Of a stretch of DNA of 64,000 nt, positions 47,301 to 64,000 are shown piece by piece. The notes below the pieces were generated by a model, which was given only the letters and a program-made list of their open reading frames with translations, was not told the DNA's origin and did not search any database. Numbering within the stretch: the stretch's first letter is position 1; each line of letters opens with the position of its first letter. Source of the DNA: an uncultured Acidimicrobiaceae bacterium (GTDB lineage: Bacteria > Actinomycetota > Acidimicrobiia > Acidimicrobiales > RAAP-2); the NCBI GenBank assembly GCA_963831535.1, contig CAWHQP010000003.1, positions 131,366 to 195,365 of the forward strand, given 5' to 3'. Both the position numbers and the translations under genes were made by a program.

Positions 47301-48154
47301 TCAGTCGTCGAACGTGTAGGAGGAGAGCACCTCGTAGCGCTCGATGAGACGCTCGACATCGGTGCGTTCCGCCACCGTCCACGGAATCGAATCTCGGGTC
47401 CGCCTGGTTCTCGCCCACACGATGCCAGCACAGGCCTCGAGGTAGGTGGGCTCGGTGTCCACGCCGAGGAATCGGCAGAGCCCGGTCAACTCCGGGACGG
47501 TGTGGCTGGCGAAGTCCTCGTAGCGGATGTCGACCAGCTCCTCGGGCGCCAAGAGCGGCCGGACCGCCTCCACGGACCGGCAGATCTGCTCGTACCACTC
47601 CGTCGCCTGGGTGAGGGACATCTTGTGACGTCGGGCCTCGGTGGCGATGTTGTCGAACGGATTGCGGGTGACATGGATCACCCGTAGCGGTACCTTCACC
47701 ACGTGACGCATCCGATCCAGCAACTGCGGCCGTTGGGCGATCTGGAGTACCGAGGATCGGGCCCGCTTGTCACCGATGATCCGCAGTCGGTCGAACCGCC
47801 CCTGGAACTGGCCGGGGATCTCGTACTGGTAGCCGGACCAGGTCCGACCGATCGAACCGAACTGCTGGTCCCGCTGGAGGAGCAGGGAAAAGAGCTGGGA
47901 GCGCCTGAACCCGTGTCGGACATAGCGGACGGCATCGAGTTCGTGAGCGATGACCATGTCTCGGGTGGGCGTTGAGCAGTGTGGCCACCAGCGTGTGGCC
48001 GCTCCGGGCGTAACCGATGAAGAAGCAGAAGCGGTCCAGATCGGAGAAGTCCGGACCGGGCCAGCAGTGCAGCGCCGAGGAGGCGTAGAGCCCGGCCCAC
48101 TGGCGCCGGGTACGTGGATCGGGAAGCCCGTCCAACGCCGGAGGCGACCCCCAT
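47301..48154 (-). pseudogene. Sulfotransferase family protein (no. 1); frameshifted
   Basis: ORF 47301..47957(-) carries ...RIIGDKRARSS...VIHVTRNPFDNIATEARRHK...DIRYEDF.... The N-terminal PAPS-binding loop DRFCFFIGYARSGHTLVATLLNAHP is in the tail of ORF 47770..48804(-). The probable ATG at 48154 is followed immediately by a 5-base homopolymer (C5 on the plus strand, 48148-48152). Removing one base from it joins ATG to GSPPALDGLPDP...WAGLY. A second break is near 47955. Confidence 0.7.
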
Positions 48155-48176
48155 CCCGGGGACGCCGGGGGGGCGC

Positions 48177-49367
48177 TCAGTGACCGGCCACCGTCTTGAT
48201 CCGGGAGCGATCCGGGTCCACCGCCAGAACCCGAGTGTCCCGGTGCCCGCCTGTCGAGGAGGGGCTGCAGGATGGTCATCCACTGCTGGCCCACGGCGGC
48301 CAGGCTGAAGTTGTCCTCACATCGGGCGCGGGCCGCCTGTCCGATCGATGAGCGGAGCGCCGCGTCCCGGAGTAGCCGGGCGGTGACCGCGGTCATTGCC
48401 GCCACATCGTCAACGGGGACGATGAAGCCCGTCGCACCGTCCTCGACAACCGAGCTTGCGCCCGGCACCGAGGTGGCCACCACGGGTATCCCCGTCAGTC
48501 CCGCCTCGATCAGCACGCCCGGCATTCCCTCGCCGGCCGGGCGGCTGGGGAAGACCATGACGTCGGCCTGACGTAACTGGTCGGCGACGTCCGAACGGGA
48601 GCCCAGCATCTCCACGCCATTGGCGGCGGCCGGCCCGGCTACGGTCTGGCGCAGCGGTCCGTCTCCGATCAGTGCGGCCGGCATTCGGACCCCGTCGGCC
48701 CGCAGGCCGCGCCACAACATCGATGAACGGTCGGGCGCTTTCCCCTCTGTCAGATGCGCCGACGAAGGTGACCCGTGGTGGCCCGGAGGCGGTGGCGTCG
48801 TCACCGGGGGTGGAACTCGGCAGGGTCACGACCATTCGGGGTCACGGTCGACCCGGTGGGGCGGTACTCCGAACCGGGCGATGCACTCGTCGCGGACCTC
48901 CTGGCCCTCGGCCGCGATGGCGTCGGCACGCGACATCAGGTAGCTCCACAGGAACCGCTGCACGCCGAGGGCCGAGCCCGAGTAGGTGCCGATGGCGTAG
49001 TAGACCGCGGTCTCCTGTGGCCGATCATGGCTGCCACCAGGTATTTCAGAGGCTCGCTCCCGTGCGCCACAACCACCTCGGGATCCATGCGGTCCAGGGC
49101 GCGGCGAAGCTGGATGACCAGGCGGGGGTCGAAACCCACGGCGGGTGAGTCACCGCCCGGATGCTCCAGCGAGAGGTCGACGACCACCTCGGGGGCTCCG
49201 GCGAAGAGCGCTGAGCACCCGGTGGACCCGTATCCCCGGCAGGTCGAGTTGGTCGGCCAGTGCCCGTGCCTCGCGTTGGGCACCACGGGCCACGTGGTGT
49301 CGGGATCACGTGCAGCACCAGCGAACCATCGGTCGACGTCAACCCATCGGTGGTCGCGCTCGGTCAT
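48177..49367 (-). pseudogene. GT4-family glycosyltransferase; heavily frameshifted (at least 5 breaks)
   Basis: ATG 49367 follows AGGGGGG. Pieces are scattered over all three reverse frames. They are LVLHVIP (ORF 49046..49342), RGAQREARALADQLDLPGIRVHRVL (unlisted frame) and APEVVVDLSLEHPGGDS...DPEVVVAHGSEPLKYLVAAMIGH (ORF 48936..49367). They continue with ETAVYYAIGTYSGSALGVQRFLWSYLMSRADAIAAEGQEVRDECIARFGVPPHRV (unlisted frame) and DDATASGPPRVTFVGA (ORF 48410..48835). The last piece is PAALIGDGPLRQ...VMVFPSRPAGEGMPGVLIEAGLTGIPVVATSVPGASSVVEDGATGFIV (ORF 47770..48804). The probable stop is TGA at 48177-48179. Confidence 0.65.
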
Positions 49368-49521
49368 AGGCGGCCCCCCTGCTGCGGCCGGTCACTCCGG
49401 CGTCGAGACCCTACCAGCCTGGTAGGTGGCACCTCCTCCGCTACCATCGACCGGGTCCGGGTCACCCGGTGCCGCGACCACGCGGTCGCCGTCCCCGGAC
49501 GCATCGGTGCGAGAGGTAACG

Positions 49522-50759: not shown

Positions 50760-50798
50760 AGCCGAAGACACGTCGCAGGCCAAGCCTGCGGCAAGTTG

Positions 50799-51834
50799 AT
50801 GCATCGCGTAACATTGCCGCCCATGGAAGTCCTGGCGCTGTACCTCCCCCAATTCCACCCCATCCCCGAGAACGACCGGTGGTGGGGTGTGGGCTTCACC
50901 GAGTGGGCCAAAGTCGTCCGGGCCCGTCCGTTGTTCCGGGGTCACGTGCAACCCCATCTGCCCACCGAACTGGGCTTCTACGACCTGCGGGTGCCCGAAG
51001 TACCGGGAGGCCCAGGCCGATCTGGCCCGCCGGCTACGGAGTCACCGGCTTCTGCTACTGGCACTACTGGTTCGCCGGCCACCGCCTCCTCGAGCGCCCC
51101 TTCGACGAGGTGGTCGCCGTCGGGTCAGCCCGACTTCCCCTTCTGTGTGGCCTGGGCCAACCAGAGCTGGTCCGGGATCTGGCACGGGGCACCCGACCGG
51201 ATGCTGATGGAGCAGACCTATCCCGGACCTGACGACGACTCGTGCCCACTTCGCCTGCTTAGACCGTGCGTTCGAGGATCCCCGCTACGTCAGGATCGCC
51301 GGCCGGCCGGTCCTGTTCATCTACCAGGCCGGCAATCTCCTGCCCAGCCGGCCCGGTTCGTCGAGGATGGCAGAAGATGGCCCACGACGCCGGACTGGGA
51401 GGCCTGTACCTGGTGGCGTTCCTCGGCGAGCACGAGTACGGGTCGCAGGTGGAGGATGGGTTCGATGCGGCCGTCCACTTCCAGTTCCCCTTCGGGTCGG
51501 ACCTCGCCACCTGGGTCGCGGGAGCGCCTGCGATCGCGTGGCTTGGTCCACAGCCCGAAGCGCTATCCCTATGCCGGACGACCACCGCCGGCCCACCCGC
51601 CGGCCTGGGCGGTCGGCTGTTCCCCAGCGTCTACCCGAACTGGGACAACACGCCCCGCATGGGCCGGACGGGCTGGTGGCCACGGGCTCCACCCCCGAGC
51701 GCTTCGGGCCCACGTCCGCCGAGGCCGCCGAGTTGGCCTCAGCCCACCCCCCCGGTGAACAGCTGCTGATGATCAAGTCGTGGAACGAGTGGGCCGAGGG
51801 GAACTACCTCGAGCCCGACGACGAGTACGGGTAG
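50799..51834 (+). pseudogene. WbsX-family glycan-modifying protein (Glyco_tran_WbsX / GH99-like fold); at least 5 frameshifts
   Basis: The pieces run in order. ORF 50796..51758 gives MEVLALYLPQFHPIPENDRWWGVGFTEWAKVVRARPLFRGHVQPHLPTELGFYDLRVPEV. ORF 50579..51232 gives YGVTGFCYWHYWFAGHRLLERPFDEVV. ORF 50796 again gives QPDFPFCVAWANQSWSGIWHGAPDRMLMEQTY. ORF 51266..51769 gives WQKMAHDAGLGGLYLVAFLGEHE...FPSVYPNWDNTPR. ORF 51367..51834 gives LLMIKSWNEWAEGNYLEPDDEYG*. Confidence 0.7.
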
Positions 51835-51900
51835 GGACGGCTCGAGGCCCTGGCCGCTGCGCGCTCACGCCAGGACGCGGCCCGACCTCCCCGCTGAGAG

Positions 51901-53091
51901 TCACGACCGGGTGAGCCTGCGCCGGTAGATGCCTTCGATCTCGCCGCTGGCCCGGGCGACGTCGAACCCGGTGCTGTCGACCATGGCCTGGCGCCCGAGC
52001 CGCTCACGAAGGTCGGGATCCGACGCTCAGCCGCTCGAGGGCATCAGCCAGGGCTCGCGGGTCGCCCGGCGGGACGATCAGCCCGTTGACCCCGTCGGTG
52101 ATCACCTGGGGGACCCCCCTACCGCGGTGGCCACGATGGCTCGCGCCCACGCTGGTGGCCTCCATCAGGGCGACGGGAAGGCCCTCTTGATCGGGAGGCG
52201 AGCACGAAGATGTCGGCCGCGCACAGTCAGGTCGAGTGCGTCCTGGCGATGACCGAGGAAGTGGAACCGGTCGCCCAGGCCGAGTTGGTGATGGCGATCG
52301 GCCAGCTCGTCGGGCCAGGCGACCCCTGGCCGGCGGCGGCGAACCGGACGGGCAGGCGGCGCCGGTCGGCCAGCATGGGCCGCGTCGAGCAGGACGTCGT
52401 AGCCTTTCTCCGAGCGGAGATTGGCCACGGTGACCACCAGCACCTCGTCCTCGGCGATACCGAGCTCGTCCCGGACCTCGGCGCCGGATCTGCGTCACCG
52501 GCCGTGGCCGCCGTGGCCGAGGAGCGGAGAGGTCGACGCCGTGCACCACCACCTGGGCCCGGTGCCTGCAGGGCTGCGAGGAAGGGCGTCGTAGGCGGCC
52601 TGGGACACGGCGATGAGGGCCCGGTCGCGTCCGACGGTGGCCCGGTTGAGCGCCTTGACCAGTACGGCGACCTTGTTCCACAGACTGTGCTCGGTGTAGA
52701 GGGTCACCGGTCGCCGCCTTCGGGGGAGCGTGGCCACCACCAGACGTCCCAGCGCCGCGGTGTAGGGCAGGTGGAAGTGGACGATGTCGAACTGACCCCG
52801 GCCAGGAGGAGCCGGCGGAAGGCGCGACATCCAGCGGAGGTCGAGATTGCGGGTGGCGCCGAGGGCGTGGACCGGGGTGCCCTGCCGGCAGCGCAGAACT
52901 CGGGGACCAGGGCGTCCTCGGCGGCCGAGGATGTACGCCACCTCGTACTCGAAGGAATCGTGGTCGCCGGCGGCGACCAGGTCCACCAGCAGCCGCTCGG
53001 CTCCCCCGTGACCCGAGGCTCTTGATGGCCAGCAGCACCCGGATCCGGGCGGTTCGAACTCGGGTGTGCTGGGCTGCTCTGGTCCCGGCAC
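51901..53091 (-). pseudogene. GT4-family glycosyltransferase; at least 5 frameshifts
   Basis: The pieces run in order. ORF 52004..53179 plus ORF 52495..53091 give IRVLLAIKSLG/HGGAERLLVDLVAAGDHDSFEYEVAYIL. ORF 52495..53091 gives GTPVHALGATRNLDLRWM...FDIVHFHLPYTAALGRLVV...VTLYTEHSLWNKVAVLVKALNRATVGRDRALIAVSQAAYDALP. ORF 52165..52443 gives LVVTVANLRSEKGYDVLLDAA...LGLGDRFHFLGHRQDALDL. The tail of ORF 52004..53179 gives EGLPVALMEATSVGA...VITDGVNGLIVPPGDPRALADALERL. The C-terminus DPDLRERLGRQAMVDSTGFDVARASGEIEGIYRRRLTRS* is in an unlisted frame with its stop at 51901-51903. Confidence 0.65.
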
Positions 53092-53131
53092 GGGGCGATG
53101 TTAGCGGTGGCCGATCGGCCCTGACGTGGCT

Positions 53132-53202
53132 CTCGGAGCGCGCAACGCGCGGTAATCCTTGTCGGAGCGCGCGATGCATCGTGCACGGGTCTCGGAGCGG
53201 GC
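53132..53202. promoter_or_regulatory. Three phased 12-nt direct repeats (C/G)TCGGAGCG(C/G)GC in the divergent GT4 / wzm intergenic region; candidate operator or activator sites
   Basis: The copies are CTCGGAGCGCGC at 53132-53143, GTCGGAGCGCGC at 53161-53172 and CTCGGAGCGGGC at 53191-53202. Each is preceded by T. The spacing is 29 and 30 bp. The last copy lies about 70 nt upstream of ATG 53274. Confidence 0.35.
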
Positions 53203-53273
53203 CCAGGGGGGTAGTGTCGGCCGATGATAGCTGTGGTGGACGTCGAAGTTCGGTGACACGCTGGTGGTGACCG

Positions 53274-54217
53274 ATGTCTCATCCGATCCCCGCGGAGCCC
53301 CGCGACGAGATCATCTACCACCACAAGGTCAGCTACATCGAGTCGATCCGGAACCTGTGGGCCCACCGCGAGATCATCTACACCCTGGCCGAGCGGGACT
53401 TCCGGGCCCAGTACAAGCAGGCCGACCCTCGGGGTGCTCTGGGCCGTCCTCAGCCCGGTGGCCACCCTGGTCATCTTCGTCGTGGTGTTCTCACGGGTGA
53501 AGACGCTTCAGCAGCGAGGGCGTTCCCTACGCCGCTCTACGCCTTCGTGGGCATCCTGTGCTGGAGCTTCTTCGCCGCGGCGCTGGGCACCGGTGGGCAG
53601 CTCGCTTGCTACCAACAAGGCGCTGCTGGCCAAGACCCAGTTCCCCCGGGAGTGCTTCCCGCTGGAGACCATGGGGGTCGAACGCCCTGAACACGGTGAT
53701 CTCGTGGATCCCCCTGGCCATGCTGTTCGTCATCTTCGGGCGGGCCCCGACATCGGCCACCGTGTGGGTCCCGTTGTTCATGGTCATCGAGGTGGTGTTC
53801 GCCGCCGGGATCACCCTGGCCGTGTCCAGCATCATCATCCAGATGCGCGACCTGGTGCAGGTCCTTCCCATCGATCATCTCGCTCGGCCTGTTCGCCACT
53901 CCGGTGATCTGGCCGTTCTCGAAGATCCCGACCCACTACCACCTGTTCGGTGGCCATCACGTCCACAAGCCATCGTCATCGGACACCATGTGGTCCACGC
54001 CCACTAGGTCGGCGGGATCACCGTCAACCTGCAGATGGTCTACGGATTCTTCAATCCGCTGGGCCCGGTCATCGACGATGCCCGGGACACCATGCTGTTG
54101 GGCCAGCACCCCAGCTGGAACCTGGTGGGAATCGCCGCCCTCGGCGCGTCCTCTACCTGGCCTGTCGGCTACCGGATCTTCAAGCGGCTGGAGGTGAACT
54201 TTGCCGACATTGCCTGA
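53274..54217 (+). pseudogene. wzm: ABC-2-type polysaccharide export permease (Wzm/TagG-like); at least 5 frameshifts
   Basis: The pieces run in order. ORF 53274..53690 gives SIRNLWAHREIIYTLAERDFRAQYKQA. ORF 53434..53907 gives LWAVLSPVATLVIFVVVFSRVK...SLATNKALLAKTQFPRECFPLETMGV. ORF 53274 again gives YAFVGILCWSFFAAALGTGG. ORF 53558..54007 gives ALNTVISWIPLAMLFVIFGRAPTSATVWVPLFMVIEVVFAAGITLAVSSIIIQMRDLVQVLP. ORF 53904..54197 gives IWPFSKIPTHYHLF. ORF 54035..54217 gives VYGFFNPLGPVIDDARDTMLLGQHPSWNLVGIAALGA...YRIFKRLEVNFADIA*. Confidence 0.7.
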
Positions 54218-55416
54218 CGGGACCATCGAGGTCGAGCACGTCTGGAAGAAGTTCCGCGCCGACAGGACCGTCCCGAAGTTCTACGACCAGATGAAGCGGA
54301 TTCGGCAAGTCGATCGGGACCGGGGCCCGACACGACTACCGGTGGGTGCTGAAGGACGTCAACGCTCGAGGTGCCGCCGGGGGGGACCCTGGCCCTGATC
54401 GGCATCAACGGCTCGGGCAAGACGACGCTGCTCAAGATCATCAGCCAGGTGACCTACCAGTCCGCCGGACGGTGTGTCGGTCCAGGGGCGGATCGGGGCG
54501 CTGCTCAGCGTGACCAGCGGGATCCATCCGGAACTGACCGGCAGGGAGAACATCTTCCTCTACGGAGCGGTGATGGGCATGGGCCGCCAGACCATCAGGC
54601 AGCGGTTCGACGAGATCGTGGAGTTCGCCGGCCTGGCCGATGCCGTCAACCGGCAGGTCAAGTTCTACTCGATGGGCATGCAGATGCGCCTCGGGTTCTC
54701 GATCGCCGCCTTCCTCGAGCCCGACGTGCTCCTGGTGGACGAGGTCCTCTCGGTGGGCGACGCCAACTTCCAGCAGAAGTGCCTCAAGCGGATCGGGGAG
54801 ATCGTCCGGTCGGGCACCACCCTGCTCTACGTCTCCCACGACCTGGCCTCGGTCGAGGCGTCCTGCGAGAAGGCGGTGTGGCTGGCCGACGCCTGCGTTC
54901 AGGCTCCGGGCCCGACCAGGGAGGTGGTCGGCGAAGTACCGGGCCGCCGTCGAGCAGAATGCGGCGCTGGCGACGTCCACCGAGGGTGTCGTCCAGGTAC
55001 TCAAGGTGGAGATCGAAGCCGCCGACGGTGGTCAGGTGCGCTCGGAGTGCGACCTCGACGTCCGCCTGACGCTCAACTCGCCCGAAGCCGCTCGAGGCCA
55101 ACTTCTTCATCGGCGTGTCCCAGGGCAGCGCCTTCCCGATGTTCATCGTCCGCTACAGCGGTTCGTTCCCCGCCGGCGACTTCGAGGTGAAGTGCCGGCT
55201 CCACCACGTTCCGTTGGCCAAGGGTCGCTACTCACTGTGGCCGGCCATGTCGGGTCATGCCGGAGGTAAGGGGAAGCCCCTGCTTCCCTGGAGGCCGGTG
55301 ATGTCGTTCGACGTGATGGGCCCCGACGTCCTACGACTTGCCCGAGGGGGTCATGGTGATGTCCCCGGTCTACGTGGGCGCCGACTGGGAGGTCAATTGC
55401 TGCAACCCGCCGCTGA
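54201..55416 (+). pseudogene. wzt: ABC transporter ATP-binding protein with a C-terminal extension (Wzt/TagH-like); at least 5 frameshifts; 3' end uncertain
   Basis: The pieces run in order. ORF 54201..54398 gives IEVEHVWKKFRADRT. ORF 54371..55069 gives PPGGTLALIGINGSGKTTLLKII (Walker A). ORF 54474..55190 gives VQGRIGALLSVTSGIHPELTGRENIFLYGAVMGM...VKFYSMGMQMRLGFSIAAFLEPDVLLVDEVLSVGD...TLLYVSHD (signature, Walker B, H-loop). The C-terminal domain follows, starting with KYRAAVEQNAALATSTEGVVQVLKVEIEAADGGQVRSECDLDVRLTLNSPEAA (ORF 54640..55269). It continues with FFIGVSQGSAFPMFIVRYSGSFPAGDFEVKCRLHHVPLAKGRYSLWPAM (ORF 55115..55699) and PEGVMVMSPVYVGADWEV (ORF 55338..55841). The stop was inferred from TGA 55414-55416 in a neighbouring frame. 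Confidence 0.65.
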
Positions 55417-55456
55417 GTCGTGCCGTCAGCGACGGGTACGGGGTGGTGCCGGCCGG

Positions 55457-56296: not shown

Positions 56297-56428
56297 CGCG
56301 GGAACCGCCGCGCCGCGGGGAGCCCCGGCTCGAAGCGGCGCACCGATCTCATCGTCCTACCCTCCCGACCGGTCCGACCATGGCGATCCACCTGTACCCC
56401 CGTGCGCCCCTATCCGGTGTGATTCCGA

Positions 56429-56452
56429 GGTTCCACTGGCATACGTGGAACC
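56429..56452. promoter_or_regulatory. Perfect 8-8-8 palindrome GGTTCCAC-TGGCATAC-GTGGAACC in the divergent GT2/GT2 intergenic region; candidate operator
   Basis: Direct reading gives GGTTCCAC at 56429-56436 and its reverse complement GTGGAACC at 56445-56452. It lies 41 nt upstream of ATG 56493 and 133 nt upstream of the start of the minus-strand GT2 gene (56296). Confidence 0.35.
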
Positions 56453-56492
56453 ATGGTGACCCTGCCGATTAGCCTAGCCCCGTGAGGGCGCG

Positions 56493-57502
56493 ATGAGTCC
56501 AGGGCCGGTCGAGAGCGTTGGAGGGGTTCGACCTCACCGGTCACCGCCGGCGCGTGACCGCGGTGGTGCTCACCTACCGGCGACCGCGGTCTGGCCGGCG
56601 ATGTGGTCCGGTCCTTGCTGGAGGTGGAGGGGCTGGCCCCTGATCGGGTCGTCGTCGTGGTCAACGGTGAGGGCGGCCTGGACGATCCGGATGCTCGAAT
56701 CGAAGGTCAGGATGGTTCGGCTGGCCCGAAACACCGGGCCGGCCGGGGGATTCCGGGCCGGCTTGGTCGAGGCGAGTCGCGGATCCGCGGACCGAGTGGG
56801 CCTACCTGTGCGAGGACGACGTCGGGCTGTTCGACCTGCCCGCGCCGCGGCTCGACCGATCTGATGGAGCGTATCGACGCACCGGGCCGGGACCAACGTG
56901 CCGGTGGGTGCGGTGGTGGCCTACGGACGGAAGTTCGTGGGCCGGGGGACCCACACGCTCAACGTCGTTCCCCCCGAGGGGTCTCCCGGTGAACTCACGC
57001 CGGTGGATGTGGCCTGCTGGGGTGCCACGCTGGTGTCCCGGCCGGTGGTCGAGGCCGGGGTGCTGCCCGATCCCGACTGGTTCTTCGGCCTGGAGGACTT
57101 CGACTTCTTCTGCCGGGTCCGCGAGGCGGGATTCGACGTGCTGGTCGACGACGCTCGCTGCCCGCCGGGTGGCGTCCCAGCAGACCAATCGGGGACGGGA
57201 GCAGGCGCATCGGCCGAGCATCGTCCCGACCGACGGGGCGGAGGCCTGGCGGGCCTACTACCACGCCCGCAACTCGTTCGCCCTGGCCCGTCAGCACGGC
57301 CGGCCCAGCTGGTACGCCTGGCACCTGGCCTACTCGGCCCGCCAGCTGCAGACGGCTGCGCAGCCGCGCCGAACGGTCGGCCATCGTCCAGGGCCTGTGG
57401 GACGGGGCCCTGGGTCGGATGGGCGAGAACCGTCGCTACGGCCGGGCGGTGGGGGAGTTCGATCCACCCGCCGAGTCGGCGAGCCCGTCGCCGGCCAAGT
57501 AG
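56493..57502 (+). pseudogene. GT2-like glycosyltransferase (rhamnosyl/galactofuranosyl-transferase-like); at least 4 frameshifts
   Basis: The pieces run in order. An unlisted frame plus ORF 56603..56992 give VTAVVLTYRRPRLAGDVVRSLLEVEGLAPDRVVVVVNGEGGLDDPD. ORF 56493..56864 gives VRMVRLARNTGPAGGFRAGLVEA. An unlisted frame gives EWAYLCEDDVGLFDLP. ORF 56898..58499 gives VGAVVAYGRKFVGRGTHTLNVVPP...VDVACWGATLVSRPVVEAGVLPDPDWFFGLEDFDFFCRVREAGFDVLVDD. ORF 56908..57597 gives AWRAYYHARNSFALARQHGRPSWYAWHLAYSARQLQ. The C-terminus is ...GEFDPPAESASPSPAK* with TAG at 57500-57502. Confidence 0.6.
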
Positions 57503-58292
57503 GCGAAGTTGGGCCACGAGGCCCAGATCGAATTCGGGTAGCCACGCGGCAAGTTCCGCCACGTCGGCCTCGTACAGCTCCACCAGATGTCGAATGACGT
57601 CGGCGGGGAAGGATCTCGCCGTTGACTCGTCGGAATTTCTGGCCTGGCCCGTTGGCGGACAGGCGGCTGATGCGTGCTCAGGCCCAGATGTGCGAAGGTC
57701 AGCTCCAGCTGGTGGGCCTGGTCGATCACGCACCGCTCGTGTTGGAGGATCAGGAACTGGTCCCGGGATCGAAGTAGTCCAGCCAGCCGTCGAGGGCCCG
57801 CTTGTAGAACCCACGCTGCACGGCGTCGGCGATGGCGGTGCCGTCGCGGGGCGTACCCATCGCCGGTCCAGGTGGCCGAGACCCGACCGGAACCGTTCGA
57901 CGGGATCCCTGAGAAGAACAGAGCAGCCGGGTGTTCGGGGCGGCCTGTTGAGGAGCGGGGTACCCAGGGGTAGGCCAGGTAGTCGGGAGTCCATTCGCCG
58001 GTCGTCGAACCGCTCGGCCGGGGGAACCAGCCGAAGTACTGCTCCGATGTCGGATCGGGCCCATCGACCGTGCCCCGAAGCGGTCGAAGAAGTGCCGCTC
58101 CTTGTGGATGTCCGGATGGGATGGCGATCCCGGGTGGGTGAGCATGAGCTCGTACCACCAGGTGGTGCCGGCCTTCTGGGCGCCGATGCCGACGAAGTCG
58201 GGTGGGCCGGACTCCTCGCCCGGGCCGAGGGGAGGGGGGGTGAAGTCGAATCCGACCTCCCAGGGTGCGTACCGACCCATCCGGTGGAGCAC
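57436..58292 (-). pseudogene. Sulfotransferase (no. 2, Sulfotransfer_1-like with a classic PKxGTTW-type PAPS loop); at least 4 frameshifts
   Basis: The pieces run in order. ORF 57750..58292(-) gives PPDFVGIGAQKAGTTWWYELMLTHP...HKERHFFDRFGA. ORF 57436..58413(-) gives EQYFGWFPRPSGSTTGEWTPDYLAYPWVP. ORF 56921..58732(-) gives LLRDPVERFRSGLGHL. ORF 57750 again gives AIADAVQRGFYKRALDGWLDYFDP. ORF 57436 again gives FLILQHERCVIDQAHQLELTFAHLGL. The C-terminus VIRHLVELYEADVAELAAWLPEFDLGLWPNF... spans ORFs 56921 and 57436. The 3' end overlaps the convergent GT2 gene by about 67 nt. Confidence 0.65.
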
Positions 58293-58575
58293 CTGGCGCC
58301 GAAGGCCCGGGGCGGCAGGCGCAAGAAGCCGTCCGAACGCGGTCTCTGGCGGCGGTCATGGCGACGGGCGTGCAGGCACGCCGCAGGTTGCCACAACCGA
58401 TGGACCTCCACAACTAACACCGGCGAGCGGTCTTGGTCGGACCTGTGGACGGCATCGCCCTCCTTGACACCGGTCCGACCACCGCCGATGATCTCGTGAT
58501 GGTCGATCCGGGGGGCTCGGAAGTCCGCAGCCGATGGGCTCCGGTTCGATCCCGTGCGATCGGAGAGGCGCGCCA

Positions 58576-60566
58576 ATGTGCGGCGTGACCGGGCTGTTCG
58601 ACCCGCGAGCGGGCCGATGCTGCGGCGACGCTCCGGCACCAGGTGGAGGCGATGACGGCCACCCTGGTCCATCGCGGGCCCGACGCCGAGGGCTACTGGG
58701 CGGACCCCGACCAGGGCGTGTGCTTCGGCCATCGCCGGCTGTCGGTGGTCGGGCTGGGGCAGGAGGGCGATCAGCCGATGATTCGGCGGACGGCCGATGG
58801 GTGGTCACCTTCAACGGGGAGATCTACAACCATCGCGACCTACGCCAGCGGCTGGCCCAGGAAGGCCTGGCCTTCCGAGGGGGATCGGACACCGAGGTGT
58901 TGGTAGGGGCGATCCAGCGCGTGGGGGCTCGACCGAGGCACTCGATGCCTGCGAAGGGATGTTCGCCCTGGCGCTATGGGACCGACAGCGCTCCGAACTG
59001 CACCTGGTCCGCGACCGCTTCGGCGAGAAGCCTCTGTACTACGGCTGGGTCGGCGAGTCGATGGCGTTCGCCTCCGAGCTGAAGGCCTTACGCACGCTGC
59101 CCCGATTCGACGCCGCCCTGGATCGTGACGCGGTAGCCCTGTACCTCCGGCACAACTGCATTCCCGGCACCTCACACCATCTACCGGCGTACCGCCAAGC
59201 TCCTGCCCGGCCAGATGGTGACCTTCGAGCGCGACCAGCCGGCCGGGCGAACCGCCCTCGTCCCGGAGCCTTCTGGTCGGCCCGAAAGGCGGTCGAGTCG
59301 GCCCGTCGGCGATCCCCTGGCGGGACCGCCCGAGGTATTGGCCGACCAGCTCGAGTCGGCGTTGTCCGATTCCGTGGCCGCCCGCATGGTGGCCGACGTG
59401 CCGGTCGGCGCCTTCCTGTCCGGGTGGGATCGATTCCAGCGTGGTGGTGGCGCTGATGCAGCAGCACAGCGCCCGGCCGGTCCGCACGTTCACGGTGGGG
59501 TTCTCCGACCGGGCATTCGACGAGTCGGCCGAGGCGGCCGCCGTCGCCGCCCATCTCGGCACCGACCATACGCCGCTGTTGCTTACCGACGGCGACGGCG
59601 CTCGAGTCTGATCCCGGCGCTGCCAGACATCTGGGACGAACCCTTCGGCGACGTGTCGGAGATTCCCATGCACCTGGTCAGTCGCGCTGGCCCGCTCAGC
59701 AGGTGACCGTGTCCCTGTCCGGGGACGGGGGCGACGAACTGTTCGCCGGATACAACCGGCATGCTTGGCTCGAACGGCTGTGGCGGCGGGCCTCGGTCCT
59801 CCCCGGGCCCGTCCGGCGCGCCGCCGGCTCGGCCCTGGGCCTCCTCCCTCCGGCCCTGGTCGGGCGATCTGGCCCGGGCCGGAGGGACGGCTCTCGCCGC
59901 GGCTGCACGGTGATCCGGAACCCGGCGTCCAAGGTGGCCAAACTGGGCAAGGTGCTGGCCGCCTGCCGGTCCCGAGGATGCCTACCTGTCGCTGGTCTCC
60001 TACTGGGACGACGCCGAGTCGATGGTGGTAGGTGCCGGCCCGAGTGTCTCGGTGGCATCCCGCCCTTCGGAGTGGCCCGAGCTCGCCGGCATCACCGAGC
60101 AGATGCTGTGGTTGGACCTCGTCGGCTATCTCCCCGATGACATCCTGACCAAGCTGGACCGGGCGTGCCATGGCCACGTCCCTCGAGACGCGGGTGCCGT
60201 TCCTCGACCGGGCGCGTCTTCGAGCTGGCCTGGAGGCTGCCCATGGGCGTGAAGCTCCACGACGGCACCACCAAGTGGCTGCTGCGACAGGTGCTCTACC
60301 GGCATGTGCCGGCCTCGTTGGTGGAGCGGCCGAAAATGGGGTTTGGCTTTCCGATCGGAGCCATGCTGCGAGGACCGCTGCGCGGGTGGGGAGACGAGCT
60401 GCTCGGCGAGGAGAGGCTCCGTCATCAGGGCCTGCTCCGCCCGGAGCCGGTCCGACGGGCCTGGGACCTGCACCTCAGTGGTCGGCGGGACCTGGCCCAC
60501 GAGCTCTGGGCCGTCCTGGCCCTACAGGCCTGGATCGAGCGATGGGTGCCGGATCTCAGCGGGTAG
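58576..60566 (+). pseudogene. Glutamine-hydrolysing asparagine synthase-family amidotransferase (AsnB/WbpS-like); at least 8 frameshifts
   Basis: The pieces run in order. ORF 58534..59082 gives MCGVTGLFDPR (Cys2 nucleophile). ORF 58643..58906 gives MTATLVHRGPDAEGYWADPDQGVCFGHRRLSVVGL..GDQPM. ORF 58534 again gives WVVTFNGEIYNHRDLRQRLAQEGLAFRGGSDTEVL. ORF 58797..59456 gives EALDACEGMFALALWDRQRSELHLVRDRFGEKPLYYGW. ORF 59215..59706 gives [25 protein letters not shown]. An unlisted frame gives the PP-loop remnant G(I)[15 protein letters not shown] 59703..60140 gives VSLSGDGGDELFAGYNRH. ORF 60022..60252 gives EQMLWLDLVGYLPDDILTKLDRA. ORF 60170..61000 gives SLETRVPFLD. ORF 60165..60566 gives KWLLRQVLYRHVPASLVERPKMGFGFPIG...WAVLALQAWIERW. 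Confidence 0.75.
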
Positions 60567-60608
60567 ACGCCACCGAGAGTTCCAGCCCGCTGCGCGGGTC
60601 TGGAGCTG

Positions 60609-61583
60609 TCAGCGCCCCGATTGAGGCGCGGGAACTGACCGTTGCATGCGCAAGCGGGCCCGGTCCCACAACGAGTTCGGTCGGCGTCGTTGCCGTCGGA
60701 GATCCTCCAAGGCTCGACGGAGCGTCAGGACATCCTCGACCCATCCTGGCTCGTCACCCAGATCCGGCGCCGACCAGGGCCGGTGCGTGCCCTGCAGCTG
60801 ATCGAGCGCCTGGAGCACCAGGAGCGGGCTCGCTTCGATACCAGTTGGGTCCCGTGAAACGGCACTGTGGTGTCGGAGGTTGCCGTCGACCGCGGCGGTG
60901 GCGCGTTCGACGGCAGCCGGATCGATCGGTATCCCCACCTCGCCGAGGAAGGCCACCAGCTCCCGCCGCCACGGGACGCTTGACTCCAGTACCCGATTGA
61001 ACGGCACGACCAGGGTGGGGAGACCGGAGAGGTTGGTCGCAGCCGACCGAACGTAGCGCTCCCACAGGGCCAAACCGTGGGTGAGGGGAAACGCGTCCCG
61101 GGCCTTGATCGAGCCGGCCACCTCCAAAGGATCGCGATAGATGAACACTGCGGCATCGGGAGGACGGATCACCGAGCGCCAGAAGGGCAGCAGGAGGCAG
61201 TTTCGAGGATCCTTCCACACGAAGGGATAGGCGGAGAACGCCGCGGTCACCAGAGGCAACGCCTCGACCCGGACATCGTCCAGGGCGCCATCCTTATCCC
61301 ACTGCTCACGCAACACCGGTGGAGCGGCCCAGCTGCCGCCCAGCGACCGGAGGAGTCTGTTGTTGAAGTGGGTGAGCGTGGCACTCTCCTGGTTGCCCCG
61401 TTCGTTCCACTTCGATGCGGGAATCAGGTCCTCGTCCACCGGTCCGTGCAGGCCCAGTTCCGCCAGCAGCCCGGTGAGGGCGGAGGTCCCGCTGCGATGC
61501 ATGCCGATGACGTAGAGGCATCGAGGTCCGGAGGCGTCACCAGACACGGTCTCCTGCTGTCTCGGGATTGGGGAGTGCGTCAC
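60609..61583 (-). CDS. Sulfotransferase family protein (no. 3, Sulfotransfer_3 / Stf0-like); intact
   Basis: ORF 60609..61862(-). I prefer the in-frame GTG 61583 (VTHSPIPRQQETVSGDASGPRCLYVIGMHRSGTSALTGLLAELGL). The upstream 93 codons are Arg/Pro/Ser-rich and run into the divergent neighbour's promoter. GMHRSGTS is the PAPS 5'-phosphosulfate-binding loop. Later motifs are VWKDPRNCLLLPFW and FIYRDPLEVAGS. Confidence 0.8.
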   Translation of the reverse strand: MTHSPIPRQQETVSGDASGPRCLYVIGMHRSGTSALTGLLAELGLHGPVDEDLIPASKWNERGNQESATLTHFNNRLLRSLGGSWAAPPVLREQWDKDGALDDVRVEALPLVTAAFSAYPFVWKDPRNCLLLPFWRSVIRPPDAAVFIYRDPLEVAGSIKARDAFPLTHGLALWERYVRSAATNLSGLPTLVVPFNRVLESSVPWRRELVAFLGEVGIPIDPAAVERATAAVDGNLRHHSAVSRDPTGIEASPLLVLQALDQLQGTHRPWSAPDLGDEPGWVEDVLTLRRALEDLRRQRRRPNSLWDRARLRMQRSVPAPQSGR

Positions 61584-61821
61584 CGATCGGCCCTTCGACG
61601 GCAAGTCCGGATGGAAATCAGGGTTCCCGAGTCTACGGAGTGGCCGTTGTCCGCGCCACCACGGTCCGCCAGGGGCAGCGGTGGAGGATAGACTGAAGGA
61701 GCTGGGTCGTGGTACTGGGCGCCGGTCGGCGGTGGGCCGGCGTGAGAGAGGGGAGTGGGGGGTGGTGACAGCATTTAGCGCCGATTCCAGCCGTGTCCGC
61801 GCCCCACAGCGCGGCTGCCGG

Positions 61822-62889
61822 GTGGTCACCACGTCGCTGACGGCTCGGGTGTTGTTAGCCAACCAGCTGCGCTCGCTCGGGGAGACGCACTGGACGGTGA
61901 TCAGCGGCGACGCCTATGACGATCCGCCCGACGGGGTGGAGGTCGAGGTGATACCCATTCGACGTGAGTTCGCGCTCTCCGACCTCAACGCCTTCCTCCG
62001 ACTCTGGCAGGTCCTGCGTCGGCGCCGGTTCGATTTCGTGCAGACGCATACTCCGAAGGCCTCCTTCCTGGGTCTGCCTGCGGCCCGTCTGGCCGGCAGC
62101 ACGGCCATCTACACCATCCACGGCTCGTTGTACTTCGCCGGGAACGGACGTGTCGCCAATCTTCTGGGCTGGTGCTTCGAGCGATGGTGCTGCACGTGGG
62201 CGCATCGGGTGCTGGTGCAGAGCGCCGAAGACCAGCGTGTCCTTCCCCAGGTGTACATCTGTCCCCGGAGCAAGTTGGACTATGTGGGTAACGGCATCGT
62301 CGTGGACCGGTTCTTATCCCCCGTGCCCCCTGCGCTGGCTTCGCCCCGGCCCATCGTGCTGATGATCAGTCGACTGGTGCGCGAGAAGGGATGCGAGGAT
62401 TTCCTGCGCATGGCGGCAGAACTGTCCGACCGCGCCGACTTCGTCCACGTCGGACCGTCCGAACACGACCAGAGCGACGCCCTCCCCGAATCAGTGGTGC
62501 GGGCCGCCGCCGACGCTGGGACGGTGACGTTCATCGGCGCTGTCGACGACGTCCGTCCGTATCTGGCATCGGCTGCCGTGGTGGTACTCCCGTCCTTCCG
62601 GGAAGGCATACCCCGTGCCGCCATGGAGGCCGCGGTATCCGGCCGACCGGTCGCGGCCTACGACATTCGAGGTGTGCGAGAGGTGATCGATCAGCAGACG
62701 GGACTGTTGGCACCCCGGGGCGACTGGCGGGCACTCACTGCCGTGGTCGACGGACTGTTGAAGGACCCCGAGCGGTGCGCCGAACTCGGCGTCCGTTGTC
62801 GGGAACGGGTGGTCTCCCAGTTCTCCGAGGAACAGGTACTCGAGCGTCTCCGTGCCGTCTATAGCTCGCTGGCCGAGGTGGCGGCGTGA
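61822..62889 (+). CDS. GT4-family glycosyltransferase; intact
   Basis: This is the 3' part of ORF 61681..62889. A GTG near 61822 gives VVTTSLTARVLLANQLRSL...FDFVQTHTPKASFLG...IHGSLYF...LVQSAEDQRV...VLMISRLVREKGCEDFL...VVVLPSFREGIPRAAMEAAVSGRPVAAYDIRGVREVI (EX7E region). The start codon is uncertain; 61762 and 61681 are alternatives. Confidence 0.8.
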   Translation: MVTTSLTARVLLANQLRSLGETHWTVISGDAYDDPPDGVEVEVIPIRREFALSDLNAFLRLWQVLRRRRFDFVQTHTPKASFLGLPAARLAGSTAIYTIHGSLYFAGNGRVANLLGWCFERWCCTWAHRVLVQSAEDQRVLPQVYICPRSKLDYVGNGIVVDRFLSPVPPALASPRPIVLMISRLVREKGCEDFLRMAAELSDRADFVHVGPSEHDQSDALPESVVRAAADAGTVTFIGAVDDVRPYLASAAVVVLPSFREGIPRAAMEAAVSGRPVAAYDIRGVREVIDQQTGLLAPRGDWRALTAVVDGLLKDPERCAELGVRCRERVVSQFSEEQVLERLRAVYSSLAEVAA

Positions 62890-63635
62890 TGCCGGACGTC
62901 CGACTGACCGTGGATGTCGAGGACTGGTATGACGGCATGGAGGTACTCGGAGAACGCATCCCCCGCCCGGAGGGTGCGGCCAGCGGCTTGGCCGAACTGG
63001 GGGCACTGGTTGGTTCGATCGACGGCACGGCCAGGCTGACACTGTTCGTGGTGGGTAACTACGCCATGAGGGTGCGGGCGGAGCTCGCCGAATTGGCGGC
63101 CGCGGGACATGAGATCGCCAGCCATGGGCCCGACCACGGCCGGTTGCCCGATGACCCGACCACGCTGGTGGAATGGCTACGGCGTGGCCGATCGGAGTTG
63201 GAGGATCTGATCCAGCAACCCGTCTGTGGGTTCCGCTCCCCCCGGTTCGACATCCCCCCCGCCGTCGGCCTCCACGGCTTCCGTCACCTTCTGGCCGAGG
63301 CGGGCTTCGCCTACGTGTCCGATACCAGTCGCTTGGGGGAGGCCTCACCGATCCACGAACTTCCCGTACTCACTACGAGCACCTTTCCCATCGGCGGAGG
63401 CAGTTACCAGCGCCTGCTCCCGAGGTGGGTGACCGAAGGTGTCGTGGGCCGGACGTCCGGGGTGGCAGTGCTCTACTACCATTCGTACGACTTCGGCGCC
63501 ACGCTCCCCAGTACCGTTTCCATCCGATCACTGGCCGTGGCCAAACAGCTCCTAGGGAGGGCCAGGGTGAGCAAGACGTTTTCCACCATCCTCAAACGAC
63601 ACGGCAGCAAGGTGTGTGGTCATGCCGAGCGGTGA
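62886..63635 (+). CDS. Polysaccharide deacetylase-family protein (NodB-fold, DUF3473-type)
   Basis: Intact ORF, 249 aa: RLTVDVEDWYDG...LTLFVVGNYAMRVRAELAELAAAGHEIASHGPDHGRL...GFRSPRFDI...LLPRW...VLYYHSYDF. The start overlaps the GT4 stop as GTGATG. Confidence 0.75.
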   Translation: MMPDVRLTVDVEDWYDGMEVLGERIPRPEGAASGLAELGALVGSIDGTARLTLFVVGNYAMRVRAELAELAAAGHEIASHGPDHGRLPDDPTTLVEWLRRGRSELEDLIQQPVCGFRSPRFDIPPAVGLHGFRHLLAEAGFAYVSDTSRLGEASPIHELPVLTTSTFPIGGGSYQRLLPRWVTEGVVGRTSGVAVLYYHSYDFGATLPSTVSIRSLAVAKQLLGRARVSKTFSTILKRHGSKVCGHAER

Positions 63636-64000
63636 GTTCGAGACCTACTTCCATCAGCGGGCCCGCCGTTTCGCCAGCTTCTACTCCAGCGAGCCGGTCT
63701 CCAGGATGCTCGGGCGCGGTGCCTTGTTCGACCGGCTCCGATGGGCGGCCGACGTGACGGTGGGCCTGTCACCGTCACGGGTGCTCGATGTCGGATGTGG
63801 GAGCGGACCGCTGTTCGCGCCGCTGGCCGGCAAGGGGATCCATGTGACCGGCATCGATCCTGCTGAAGCCATGGTGGCCCTGGCCCGGCAGGAGGCGTCC
63901 ACCTTTCCCGGCTTGGTCGACGTCGAGCAGCGCAGCTGGGAACAGCTGACCGAGGTGGATGCCTATGACGTCGCCGTGGCCCTCGGGGTGTTCGACTACG
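63622..64000 (+). CDS. Class I SAM-dependent methyltransferase; 3' end beyond the window
   Basis: Absent from the ORF track because it has no stop in the window. My own translation from ATG 63622 gives MPSGEFETYFHQRARRFASFYSSEPVSRMLGRGALFDRLRWAADVTVGLSPSRVLDVGCGSGPLFAPLAGKGIHVTGIDPAEAMVALARQE...YDVAVALGVFDY. This contains the motif I sequence VLDVGCGSG. It overlaps the deacetylase 3' end by 14 nt. Confidence 0.75.
   Translation, partial: MPSGEFETYFHQRARRFASFYSSEPVSRMLGRGALFDRLRWAADVTVGLSPSRVLDVGCGSGPLFAPLAGKGIHVTGIDPAEAMVALARQEASTFPGLVDVEQRSWEQLTEVDAYDVAVALGVFDY

Follow-up and report, generated by a model that had tools for sequence, protein, structure and literature searches.

A sulfotransferase-rich, ABC transporter-type glycan locus of uncultured soil Acidimicrobiales with a predicted sulfated, amidated surface polymer as its product

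Results

Gene content of the locus

The subject of this study is a glycan locus in a 64-kb stretch of DNA (the window; positions 131,366 to 195,365 of contig CAWHQP010000003.1, assembly GCA_963831535.1) from an uncultured soil member of the Acidimicrobiales (Actinomycetota), in which genes for several sulfotransferases of the type that depends on 3'-phosphoadenosine 5'-phosphosulfate (PAPS) lie among glycosyltransferase genes and the two genes of a Wzm/Wzt-type ATP-binding cassette (ABC) transporter. On the evidence set out below, we consider it probable that this locus builds and exports a sulfated, amidated surface polymer of the Wzm/Wzt type, and that the many insertions and deletions (indels) in the window's copy are technical errors laid over a diverged functional allele.

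The window has a G+C content of ~70% (0.68-0.73 across the first 29 kb and 0.64-0.71 from 29 to 64 kb). Its left 36 kb hold ordinary chromosomal genes such as glnA, ligA, pknB and gatAB, and the conserved chromosomal locus fills ~27 kb of it (37-64 kb) and at least 37 kb in total, reaching ~74 kb in window coordinates. Four independent assemblies cover the same population, namely a JGI metagenome contig (L001), a Logan assembly (L002, with L003 as a further Logan assembly), a second JGI sample (L004), and the 1.84-Mb contig_4308 of ENA ERZ25039454, parts of which we refer to as L091 and L092. The protein of the third sulfotransferase in the window (ST3) is identical in L001, L002 and L003, that of the first (ST1) is 98% identical in L004, and the window's intact dehydrogenase and deacetylase occur verbatim on contig_4308. 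The relatives that carry names are metagenome-assembled genomes (MAGs) of Acidimicrobiaceae or Acidimicrobiales, the majority from one series with isolate names starting with MFD. ST3 proteins of GTDB species representatives reach at most 62% identity, so that the species is not one of these representatives.

Genes around the sulfotransferases were identified with Pfam, NCBIfam and tblastn against intact orthologues, using stop-free fragments and hand-repaired translations for Pfam searches with frame-broken genes; frame plots of third-position G+C were too noisy for gene calling in the indel-rich zone. The locus runs from a LuxR-type regulator through the sugar-nucleotide genes and two membrane proteins to the glycan genes proper, in the following order (GT, glycosyltransferase; HexNAc, N-acetylhexosamine; BY-kinase, bacterial tyrosine kinase; SAM, S-adenosylmethionine; aa, amino acids; identifiers starting with L denote compared contigs and loci):

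36998-38137, minus strand: regulator of the LuxR/GerE type, marking the left end of the conserved stretch (Pfam GerE 43.7 bits; single-frame tblastn match to L090; syntenic in L090 and L091)
38288-38923, minus strand: PAP2-family phosphatase, probably for polyprenyl-pyrophosphate recycling (Pfam PAP2 31.4 bits; orthologue 61% identical in one frame)
38989-39913, minus strand: NAD-dependent sugar epimerase, TviC-like (Pfam Epimerase 163 bits; NCBIfam TviC model among the best, below cut-off)
40000-41265, minus strand: nucleotide-sugar 6-dehydrogenase, intact, 422 aa (N, central and C domains of Pfam UDPG_MGDP_dh; exact protein on contig_4308)
41291-43244, minus strand: CapD/WbpM/PglF-like membrane UDP-HexNAc 4,6-dehydratase (Pfam CoA_binding_3 and Polysacc_synt_2; NCBIfam PseB and FnlA-type models below cut-off)
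44021-45658, plus strand: 546-558-aa membrane protein with a weakly BY-kinase/co-polymerase-like C-terminus (single-frame match to the 558-aa orthologue in L090; NCBIfam Wzc and eps_fam far below cut-off; no Pfam match)
45684-47014, plus strand: 445-aa membrane protein with a weak PMT_2/GT-C likeness, its frame broken twice in the window (22.6 bits with Pfam PMT_2, under the cut-off; three tblastn frames; insertions at 46438 and 46694 relative to L091)
47301-49367, minus strand: GT4a-ST1 fusion, 686 aa when intact, with the ST1 domain at 47301-48168 (Pfam; one 686-aa protein on contig_4308, L091 1908-3968)
49522-50759, plus strand: GT4b, 408 aa when intact, with 16 indel events (a fragment scores 69 bits with Pfam Glyco_trans_1_4; orthologues)
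50823-51888, plus strand: glycosyltransferase of the WbsX family, broken in the window and 353 aa in its intact form (Pfam Glyco_tran_WbsX 79 and 25.5 bits; two tblastn frames)
51913-52986, minus strand: GT4c, 354-355 aa when intact, broken in the window (Pfam Glyco_transf_4 42.8 and Glycos_transf_1 25.6 bits on fragments; tblastn; intact in L090 and L092)
53205-54217 (start approximate), plus strand: Wzm ABC-2 permease, 327 aa when intact, 16 indel events (tblastn to L090 Wzm at 38-53% identity in two frames; intact orthologue matches PF01061, ABC2_membrane)
54201-55400, plus strand: Wzt ABC ATPase, 397 aa when intact, with a ~150-aa C-terminal extension (Pfam ABC_tran; intact orthologues match PF00005)
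55457-56353, minus strand: GT2, 279-298 aa (Pfam Glycos_transf_2 87 bits; single-frame tblastn at 69% identity)
56495-57502 (start approximate), plus strand: GT2-like protein, 309-332 aa when intact, 11 indel events (intact L001 protein Glycos_transf_2 22 bits, cut-off 23.3; three tblastn frames)
57436-58350, minus strand: ST2, 278-303 aa when intact, 13 indel events (Pfam Sulfotransfer_1 and Sulfotransfer_3; L001 13124-14035)
58576-60566, plus strand: AsnB-type glutamine amidotransferase, 656 aa when intact, with 19 indel events (fragments match Pfam GATase_6 and Asn_synthase)
60609-61547, minus strand: ST3, intact, 312 aa from a GTG start (a 312-aa gene also called on contig_4308; Pfam sub-threshold; model fold)
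61762-62889, plus strand: GT4d, intact, 375 aa (Pfam Glyco_trans_1_4 92.6 and Glyco_transf_4 64.8 bits; called in L092)
62889-63635, plus strand: NodB-fold polysaccharide deacetylase with DUF3473, intact, 248 aa (Pfam DUF3473 34.7 and Polysacc_deac_1 30.1 bits; exact protein on 7 public contigs)
63622-64000, plus strand: SAM-dependent methyltransferase, truncated by the window end and 222 aa in full (tblastn 80% to a 222-aa protein in L006; orthologues match Pfam Methyltransf_11, _23 and _25)

An earlier reading of the window from its letters alone (the original prediction) had named most of these families, and its left arm of PAP2 phosphatase, dehydrogenase, epimerase and CapD-like dehydratase was recovered with Pfam domains for every member, just as the WbsX, Wzm/Wzt, AsnB, NodB-type deacetylase and SAM methyltransferase genes were confirmed by Pfam, NCBIfam, tblastn and PDB relatives. 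The glycosyltransferases are indeed interleaved with sulfotransferases as it had proposed, while its count of five GT4/GT2 enzymes has to be replaced by four GT4, two GT2-type and one WbsX protein. The 6-dehydrogenase scores 389 bits with the NCBIfam NDP-sugDHase model (cut-off 190), and the equivalog models nearest to it, those of UDP-ManNAc dehydrogenase and TviB, match below their cut-offs. AsnB passes the NCBIfam model asn_synth_AEB (TIGR01536; 460 bits, cut-off 267) and stays below the cut-off of the XrtA amidotransferase model (TIGR03108; 521 bits against 817). A HexNAc-uronic acid that is then amidated would fit this gene set because the dehydrogenase resembles TviB/WecC and the epimerase TviC, with amidation of the uronate by AsnB predicted from its co-occurrence with the nucleoside diphosphate (NDP)-sugar 6-dehydrogenase.

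Wzm lies directly upstream of Wzt with a 17-base overlap. Its window fragments gave no Pfam match, and the NCBIfam galactan Wzm model matched below cut-off. The best PDB relative of Wzt is the Aquifex aeolicus protein (E 4e-52), followed by TarH/TagH and Mycobacterium tuberculosis RfbE, with alignments that cover residues 11-245 only.

ST1, ST2 and ST3 have the hallmarks of PAPS-type sulfotransferases

PAPS-dependent sulfotransferases share an arrangement in which a 5'-phosphosulfate loop is followed by a 3'-phosphate motif. We defined the 5'-phosphosulfate-binding (5'-PSB) loop as G-x-x-[RK]-[SA]-G-[TH]-[TS] and the 3'-phosphate-binding (3'-PB) motif as R-[DN]-P ... S. All three loop signatures that the original prediction had pointed out were found on the minus strand, i.e., GYARSGHTL of ST1 (47989-48015), GAQKAGTTWW of ST2 (58155-58184) and GMHRSGTSAL of ST3 (61476-61505), and each of them is followed after 90-125 residues by an R-[DN]-P motif (VTRNPFDN at 47649-47672, LLRDPVERF at 57890-57916 and IYRDPLEVAGS at 61110-61142, respectively).

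Profile searches with the Pfam gathering cut-offs (27 bits for Sulfotransfer_3 and 22 bits for Sulfotransfer_1) placed two of the three candidates above threshold. ST1 reached 55 and 23.1 bits with the two models after repair of one frameshift, and ST2 reached 35.9 and 31.5 bits as a hand-repaired translation and 39.9 and 40.9 bits as the intact allele of another assembly. ST3, which is intact in the window, scored 19.9 bits with Sulfotransfer_3 and did not match Sulfotransfer_1, so that taken alone it falls short; yet 30 of 40 relatives of ST3 themselves match Sulfotransfer_3 (best E 8e-8), residues G15-S22, R138 and S146 are invariant across the alignment of these 40 proteins, and the predicted fold agrees. 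An AlphaFold2 model of ST3 (mean predicted local distance difference test score 88.1, predicted template modelling score 0.86) gave tyrosylprotein sulfotransferases as its best Foldseek matches in the PDB (E ~2e-6, template modelling (TM) scores 0.43-0.54), followed by the OLS and CurM sulfotransferase domains, Teg12, StaL and Stf0. The top 15 matches are all PAP(S)-binding enzymes of the sulfotransferase fold, down to retinol dehydratase in 15th place (E 1.7e-6 to 5.3e-3, TM 0.31-0.54). A sequence profile of the 40 ST3 relatives had no match among PDB sequences.

From profiles, motifs and, for ST3, its relatives and model, we assign ST1, ST2 and ST3 to the PAPS-type proteins of the sulfotransferase fold, with predicted activity. 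They had been described as unrelated, and pairwise comparison corrects this: ST1 and ST3 are 22% identical (E 7e-4), ST2 and ST3 align at E 0.16 and ST1 and ST2 do not match, as would be expected of very distant, deeply diverged members of one superfamily. Among solved structures, ST2 is closest to heparan-sulfate glucosaminyl 3-O-sulfotransferases (3-OSTs; E 1e-11) and the N-sulfotransferase domain of the N-deacetylase/N-sulfotransferase NDST, and the sole PDB sequence match of ST1 is the OLS polyketide sulfotransferase domain (E 1e-3). The family of ST3 comprises 24,319 cluster representatives (50% identity clusters) at E <= 1e-3 and is called "hypothetical protein" in every source that names it.

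Gene context suggests a role of the sulfotransferases in glycan synthesis

The cluster runs on for at least 9.6 kb past the window end on contig_4308 (L092), where a methyltransferase, a GT2, two further sulfotransferases (ST4 and ST5), a methyltransferase, a GT2, a GT4, a 396-aa protein and a WbsX-methyltransferase fusion of 699 aa follow in this order; L092 12452-14737 and 15073-20747 hold ST4, ST5, GT2, GT4 and two further methyltransferase genes, one of them split (188 + 111 aa). Both additional sulfotransferases carry the 5'-PSB and 3'-PB motifs. ST4 scores 43 bits with Sulfotransfer_3, and ST5 scores 57 bits with Sulfotransfer_3 and 42 bits with Sulfotransfer_1 and has PDB entry 3RNL (E 3e-47) and heparan-sulfate sugar sulfotransferases (3-OSTs, NDST) among its closest solved relatives. 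Instead of the three sulfotransferases originally proposed, the full locus therefore holds five, of five subfamilies, in ~27 kb, with ST4 and ST5 lying just beyond the window. The 396-aa protein contains tandem ELQRAHD repeats and is probably a coiled coil; together with the methyltransferases, including the WbsX fusion, it recalls the chain-length/terminator modules of WbdD type.

Several features connect these enzymes to the glycosyltransferases around them. On contig_4308, all five are surrounded by genes for glycosyltransferases and export, in the interval from GT4a to the distal GT4. There, GT4a and ST1 form a single 686-aa protein with Glyco_transf_4, Glycos_transf_1 and Sulfotransfer_3 domains, and in L004 (10-1266) a 43-codon Gly/Ser/Pro linker without a stop and without ATG, GTG or TTG joins the two parts, so that the fusion is seen in two independent assemblies. 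An insertion at 47963 disrupts ST1 in the window only. More distant relatives have GT4a and ST1 as separate genes, with a 4-base overlap in L090 and 111 bp apart in L005. GT4a-ST1 is a natural glycosyltransferase-sulfotransferase fusion. In the same vein, of nine long ST3-family proteins that we scanned (representatives P0242-P0322), eight are fusions with a GT2, GT4 or Branch (GT14) domain, and one of the eight has a methyltransferase domain in addition.

A core made up of the WbsX, GT4, Wzm, Wzt, GT2, GT2-like, AsnB, ST3, GT4, deacetylase and methyltransferase genes is syntenic and intact in L006, L007 and L008, where the variable arm carries additional sulfotransferases. ST2, between AsnB and the GT2-like gene, is present in this lineage and in L050, L074 and L086 and missing at that place in L006 and L008, which suggests that one sulfation step has been gained or lost in particular lineages. 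Of 80 loci taken from GTDB representatives, 14 have at least three and 7 at least five sulfotransferase genes within 20 kb, with a maximum of eight (L015). This densest array, in MAG MFD00731.bin.2.2 (L015, 3379-17859), holds eight sulfotransferase-like genes in 15 kb, of which three are ST3-like, three ST1-like and two ST5-like.

These observations bear on the possibility that some or all of the sulfotransferases act away from the polysaccharide, on peptide or protein tyrosines (like RaxST and TPST), a lipid or a small molecule. The acceptor of ST3 in particular could be something other than a sugar because its top structural matches are protein-tyrosine sulfotransferases, with polyketide and glycopeptide sulfotransferases next in line; the polyketide domain matched by ST1 points the same way, and acceptor specificity is not readable from sequence. 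We nevertheless judge such an off-glycan role unlikely, given the fusion of ST1 to a GT4, the repeated fusions of ST3-family proteins to GT2, GT4 and GT14 domains, the proximity of ST2 and ST5 to heparan-sulfate sugar sulfotransferases and the confinement of all five to a set of glycosyltransferase and Wzm/Wzt operons that is conserved across MAGs. No precursor peptide or polyketide synthase gene was present among the open reading frames (ORFs) that we scanned.

Frame breaks in the window are most likely technical

The original prediction had cautioned that most of the genes are frame-broken. This holds for the window sequence, in a stretch limited to ~46.0-60.25 kb beyond which ST3, GT4d, the deacetylase and the methyltransferase are intact, and it does not hold for the locus of the organism, which is intact in four assemblies. 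We compared the window with L001, L002, L004, L091 and L092 by blastn and analyzed codons separately. Relative to all other assemblies, the stretch shows ~3.5-4.5% substitutions and ~1 indel per 100 bp between flanks of at least 99.97% identity:

29997 to ~46000, against L091: 9 mismatches, 1 indel
46.0-51.3 kb, against L091: 38 indel events, ~170 mismatches
52.8-60.25 kb, against L092: 99 indel events (83 insertions, 16 deletions), 392 mismatches
60250-64000, against L001, L002, L003 and L092: 1 mismatch, 0 indels

The two noisy blocks add up to at least 137 indel events (38 + 99), with ~114 insertions against 24 deletions (~5:1). The indels are mainly single bases and lie outside homopolymer runs in the contexts that we inspected; single-base insertions in the 52.8-60.25 kb block comprise 37 G, 22 C, 9 A and 4 T. 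None of the frameshifts at 46.0-60.25 kb recurs in L001, L002, L004, L091 or L092. These assemblies agree closely with one another (L001 and L092 99.83%, L002 and L092 99.90%, L004 and L091 99.90% identical) and have every gene intact. The search for syntenic loci with intact frames in related genomes that had been suggested as a check was likewise successful, with intact and syntenic copies in several Acidimicrobiaceae MAGs.

Substitutions behave differently from noise. Within the noisy stretch, 12.15 kb are coding and contain 522 substitutions besides 115 indel events, and the substitutions fall on codon positions 1, 2 and 3 in the ratio 131/77/314 (60% third) and comprise 317 synonymous, 204 nonsynonymous and 1 nonsense change. 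We take this as a comparison of two functional alleles under purifying selection because the substitutions are mostly third-position and synonymous, with a single nonsense change. Random sequencing noise was rejected as the source of the substitutions, which are biased by codon position. Identity to contig_4308 switches sharply at ~46000 and ~60250 from at least 99.97% to ~95.5-97%, and between 54.9 and 60.2 kb substitutions relative to L001 are biased from AT to GC toward the window allele (105 against 20). Apart from the indel problem, this sharp-edged segment looks like a strain-variable or recombined cassette within the glycan locus.

Could the locus then be truly inactivated in this strain, with 46-60 kb as a decaying pseudogene cassette and no such polymer made? 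Every gene from ~46.4 to 60.2 kb is frame-broken in the window, and the segment is its most diverged part; at 95.5% identity to contig_4308, a different haplotype is really present. Decay of bacterial genes is deletion-biased and accumulates nonsense changes. The indel pattern seen here is unlike such decay, since ~1 indel per 100 bp (~1 per 4.5 substitutions) comes with a ~5:1 excess of insertions, the opposite of the deletion bias of pseudogenes. The signature of purifying selection, with 1 nonsense change in 522, the intact genes in four independent assemblies and the near-identical flanks equally speak against inactivation. True pseudogenisation was rejected as the cause of the indels because insertions prevail, only one nonsense change occurs and other assemblies have intact copies, and we consider an inactivated locus improbable, slightly more so than an off-glycan role of the sulfotransferases.

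The window record is most likely a diverged functional allele overlaid with technical single-base indels, so that the frameshifts would not be a natural property of the locus. Because four other assemblies carry the genes intact, the breaks are private to this record and most likely technical, the most likely source being, as we infer, an unpolished or low-coverage consensus in a strain-variable region. A run of frameshifts that proves private to a single record cautions against scoring pseudogenes without a second assembly.

Left of the noisy stretch, the CapD-like gene has a 1-bp insertion at 42104 in the window only (relative to L091). In the epimerase, tblastn places a frame change near 39291; contig_4308 splits this gene in the same region (221 + 93 aa) and has no indel relative to the window, so that the change is either real or an error common to both. 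Split genes are also found in the same locus of the long-read contig L005 (ENA ERZ25039595 contig_2673), where CapD falls into 165 + 174 aa and a GT1-family glycosyltransferase and an epimerase are represented by short pieces. High-GC long-read assemblies of this sort may often contain frameshift artefacts.

PAPS synthesis genes in the loci of relatives

Actinobacteria that use adenosine 5'-phosphosulfate (APS) reductase have an APS kinase that serves sulfotransferases and not cysteine synthesis, as is known for M. tuberculosis. We searched for the genes of PAPS synthesis around ST3-family genes with approximate Escherichia coli CysC and CysD sequences as queries and verified matches by Pfam in one locus (L022). 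A cysD homologue lies within 10 kb of an ST3-family gene in 12 of 80 related loci (L011, L022, L038, L060, L061, L068, L072, L076, L084, L085, L087 and L088), and 10 of these 12 have cysC as well, the exceptions being L076 and L084. The cysD gene is found 6-8 kb from the ST3-family gene, usually adjoining a WbsX gene. The loci belong to soil Acidimicrobiales and one Streptomyces, and include two relatives with an ST3 that is 56-58% identical. In L022, Pfam identifies a cysD-cysN-cysC operon (PAPS_reduct for CysD at 155, GTP_EFTU for CysN at 143 and APS_kinase at 208 bits). By gene content, cysDNC would be a PAPS-synthesis module embedded in the sulfotransferase-rich glycan loci of relatives. 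An attempt to extend the contig past L001 in search of cysDNC in the same population retrieved only a 2.9-kb contig, and a protein search with a 165-aa fragment gave no match.

That the sulfotransferase-like genes are dead P-loop relatives, or that the polymer is an ordinary non-sulfated wall polysaccharide, seems scarcely credible to us despite the sub-threshold Pfam score of ST3 and PAPS genes not being found in the window, since PAPS-binding motifs are invariant in 40 ST3 relatives, cysD stands beside these families in 12 of 80 related loci and five paralogous families are kept under purifying selection.

Other observations in the window

Two observations concern the left part of the window. 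A stop-free frame at 3154-5175 (plus strand) encodes part of a Peptidase_C26 domain (residues 41-107) ahead of a complete aldehyde dehydrogenase domain; it may be a fusion, or a high-GC frame that runs through two separate genes. At 20527-22032 (plus strand), an ORF of ~500 aa for a D12-class N6-adenine DNA methyltransferase lies directly downstream of a PknB-PASTA kinase gene.

Discussion

A predicted route to a sulfated polymer

The product of the locus is best read as a sulfated, hexosaminuronan-type wall polymer exported by Wzm/Wzt, as predicted from its genes. In the cytoplasm, UDP-HexNAc would be converted to a HexNAc-uronic acid by the 6-dehydrogenase and the TviC-like epimerase, and the CapD-like 4,6-dehydratase would act on a second HexNAc to give a 6-deoxy or diamino sugar. 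Four GT4, two GT2 and the WbsX enzyme would then build the chain, anchored to a polyprenyl carrier, on the cytoplasmic side of the membrane. Its decoration would also take place in the cytoplasm, where AsnB would amidate uronate carboxyls, the NodB-type enzyme would remove N-acetyl groups (in part), SAM methyltransferases would methylate and the five PAPS-dependent sulfotransferases (three in the window, two beyond) would sulfate the chain at several positions, before Wzm/Wzt moves the completed chain to the outside of this monoderm cell, where it would be a wall-associated or capsular polymer. PAPS-dependent sulfation in the cytoplasm would suit an ABC-transporter route because the whole chain is finished before export, and sulfation could be coupled to chain growth because at least one sulfotransferase is fused to its glycosyltransferase. 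In this respect the heavily decorated acidic glycan of the original prediction has gained ground, from the gene families, the export type, the fit of a uronamide and cysDNC in relatives, and the product of the locus is still a prediction.

Several points weigh against our reading. Homologues of cysC and cysD were not found in the 64-kb window or in the readable 9.6 kb beyond it. ST3 lacks a Pfam match above threshold of its own and has modest TM-scores, and its closest structural matches leave room for a non-sugar acceptor, as discussed above. The C-terminal 160 aa of Wzt bear no sequence likeness to the Wzt_C family (no Pfam match at E <= 0.01, no meaningful PDB sequence match), so that the search for this domain proposed along with the original prediction came out negative at the sequence level. 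An initiating phosphoglycosyl transferase was not seen among the scanned window ORFs; the N-terminus of the CapD-like protein shares with such enzymes only the membrane and CoA_binding_3 part, and the initiating transferase may be encoded elsewhere. The strong G/C bias of the insertions is a misfit with the textbook profile of homopolymer errors, and the proposed cause of the indels is an inference from assembled sequences. Finally, sulfate on polymers of Acidimicrobiales is a prediction from genes, and the host is uncultured.

Comparison with known systems

Loci with comparable gene content are on record from other bacteria. Vibrio sp. KMM 8419 has a chemically proven sulfated capsule with an ABC transporter, three sulfotransferases and cysNDC (PMC11641403), and its authors regard sulfotransferase and PAPS genes within a glycan cluster as a hallmark of sulfated polysaccharide synthesis (PMC11641403). 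Glycosyltransferases, ABC export and several sulfotransferases are shared with the locus described here, and the cysD/N/C set of Vibrio has its counterpart in relatives of the present locus. The Vibrio capsule is, however, of the Gram-negative KpsMT/KpsDE group-3 type with three sulfotransferases across an 80-gene region and a solved structure (PMC11641403), whereas our locus belongs to a monoderm, uses Wzm/Wzt, packs five sulfotransferases of five subfamilies into ~27 kb together with a GT4-ST fusion, AsnB, a deacetylase and methyltransferases, and has a product predicted from its genes. The synechan xss cluster of Synechocystis PCC 6803, for which a sulfated exopolysaccharide is genetically proven, contains two sulfotransferases of distinct subfamilies among eight glycosyltransferases, and sulfotransferase genes occur also in ABC-type clusters of other cyanobacteria (PMC8205485). 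Unlike the present locus, xss is plasmid-borne, cyanobacterial and of the Wzx/Wzy type, and is without AsnB, a deacetylase or a glycosyltransferase-sulfotransferase fusion. Among actinobacteria, the wps-1 cluster of Actinoplanes missouriensis (2026) has two sulfotransferases of different families and a methyltransferase, with a sulfated polymer that is predicted and not chemically shown (PMC13390465); it is a Wzx/Wzy system with a sporangium-matrix phenotype in a cultured filamentous actinomycete, whereas the locus studied here is ABC-type, has more sulfotransferases and comes from uncultured Acidimicrobiales. The statement accompanying the original prediction that bacterial carbohydrate sulfotransferases are known from few systems is dated in view of Vibrio KMM 8419 (PMC11641403) and wps-1 (PMC13390465). 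A single sulfotransferase-domain gene has also been found in a Wzm/Wzt O-antigen cluster of Aeromonas, where the known structure is without sulfate (PMC4483657). A search of the literature available to us found nothing relevant on sulfotransferases in Acidimicrobiia or Acidimicrobiales.

At the level of single proteins, the nucleotide-binding domain of Wzt aligns with those of the E. coli O9a, A. aeolicus, TagGH/TarGH and M. tuberculosis galactan exporters (E 4e-52 to 3e-36) and has, like these, an ABC-2 permease upstream; unlike O9a-type Wzt, its ~150-aa C-terminal extension has no sequence likeness to the carbohydrate-binding domain. ST2 and ST5 resemble animal heparan-sulfate enzymes in being closest to 3-OSTs and the NDST domain, a remote likeness (E 1e-11 or weaker). 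De-N-acetylation followed by N-sulfation is conceivable because the locus also encodes a polysaccharide de-N-acetylase. Unlike in NDST, the deacetylase is a separate NodB-fold protein here, and there is no sign of an N-acetylglucosamine-glucuronic acid backbone or of N-sulfation. What sets the locus apart is its monoderm host, export by Wzm/Wzt, how many and how diverse its sulfotransferases are, the GT4-ST fusion, and the combination with AsnB, a deacetylase and methyltransferases.

Implications

The GT4-sulfotransferase fusion offers a concrete enzyme pair for in vitro work. Going further, one may picture a widespread group of uncultured soil Acidimicrobiales as coated with a heparan-like wall polymer of HexNAc-uronamide that is partly de-N-acetylated and then N- and O-sulfated at multiple positions by five to eight dedicated sulfotransferases, with PAPS supplied by a locus-linked cysDNC. 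We offer this only as a tentative idea with the odds clearly against it, though with better prospects than any of the rival explanations weighed above; if true, a Gram-positive bacterium would for the first time be credited with a densely sulfated, glycosaminoglycan-like polymer, and a large supply of carbohydrate sulfotransferases, so far untapped, would open up. Sulfated polysaccharides, heparin-like or carrageenan-like, are valued biomaterials with few bacterial producers. Should the more general prediction of a sulfated Wzm/Wzt-type polymer prove right, sulfated polysaccharides would have a new source, and a common one, in soil Acidimicrobiales, and the ST3 family with its ~24,000 clusters would gain a function.

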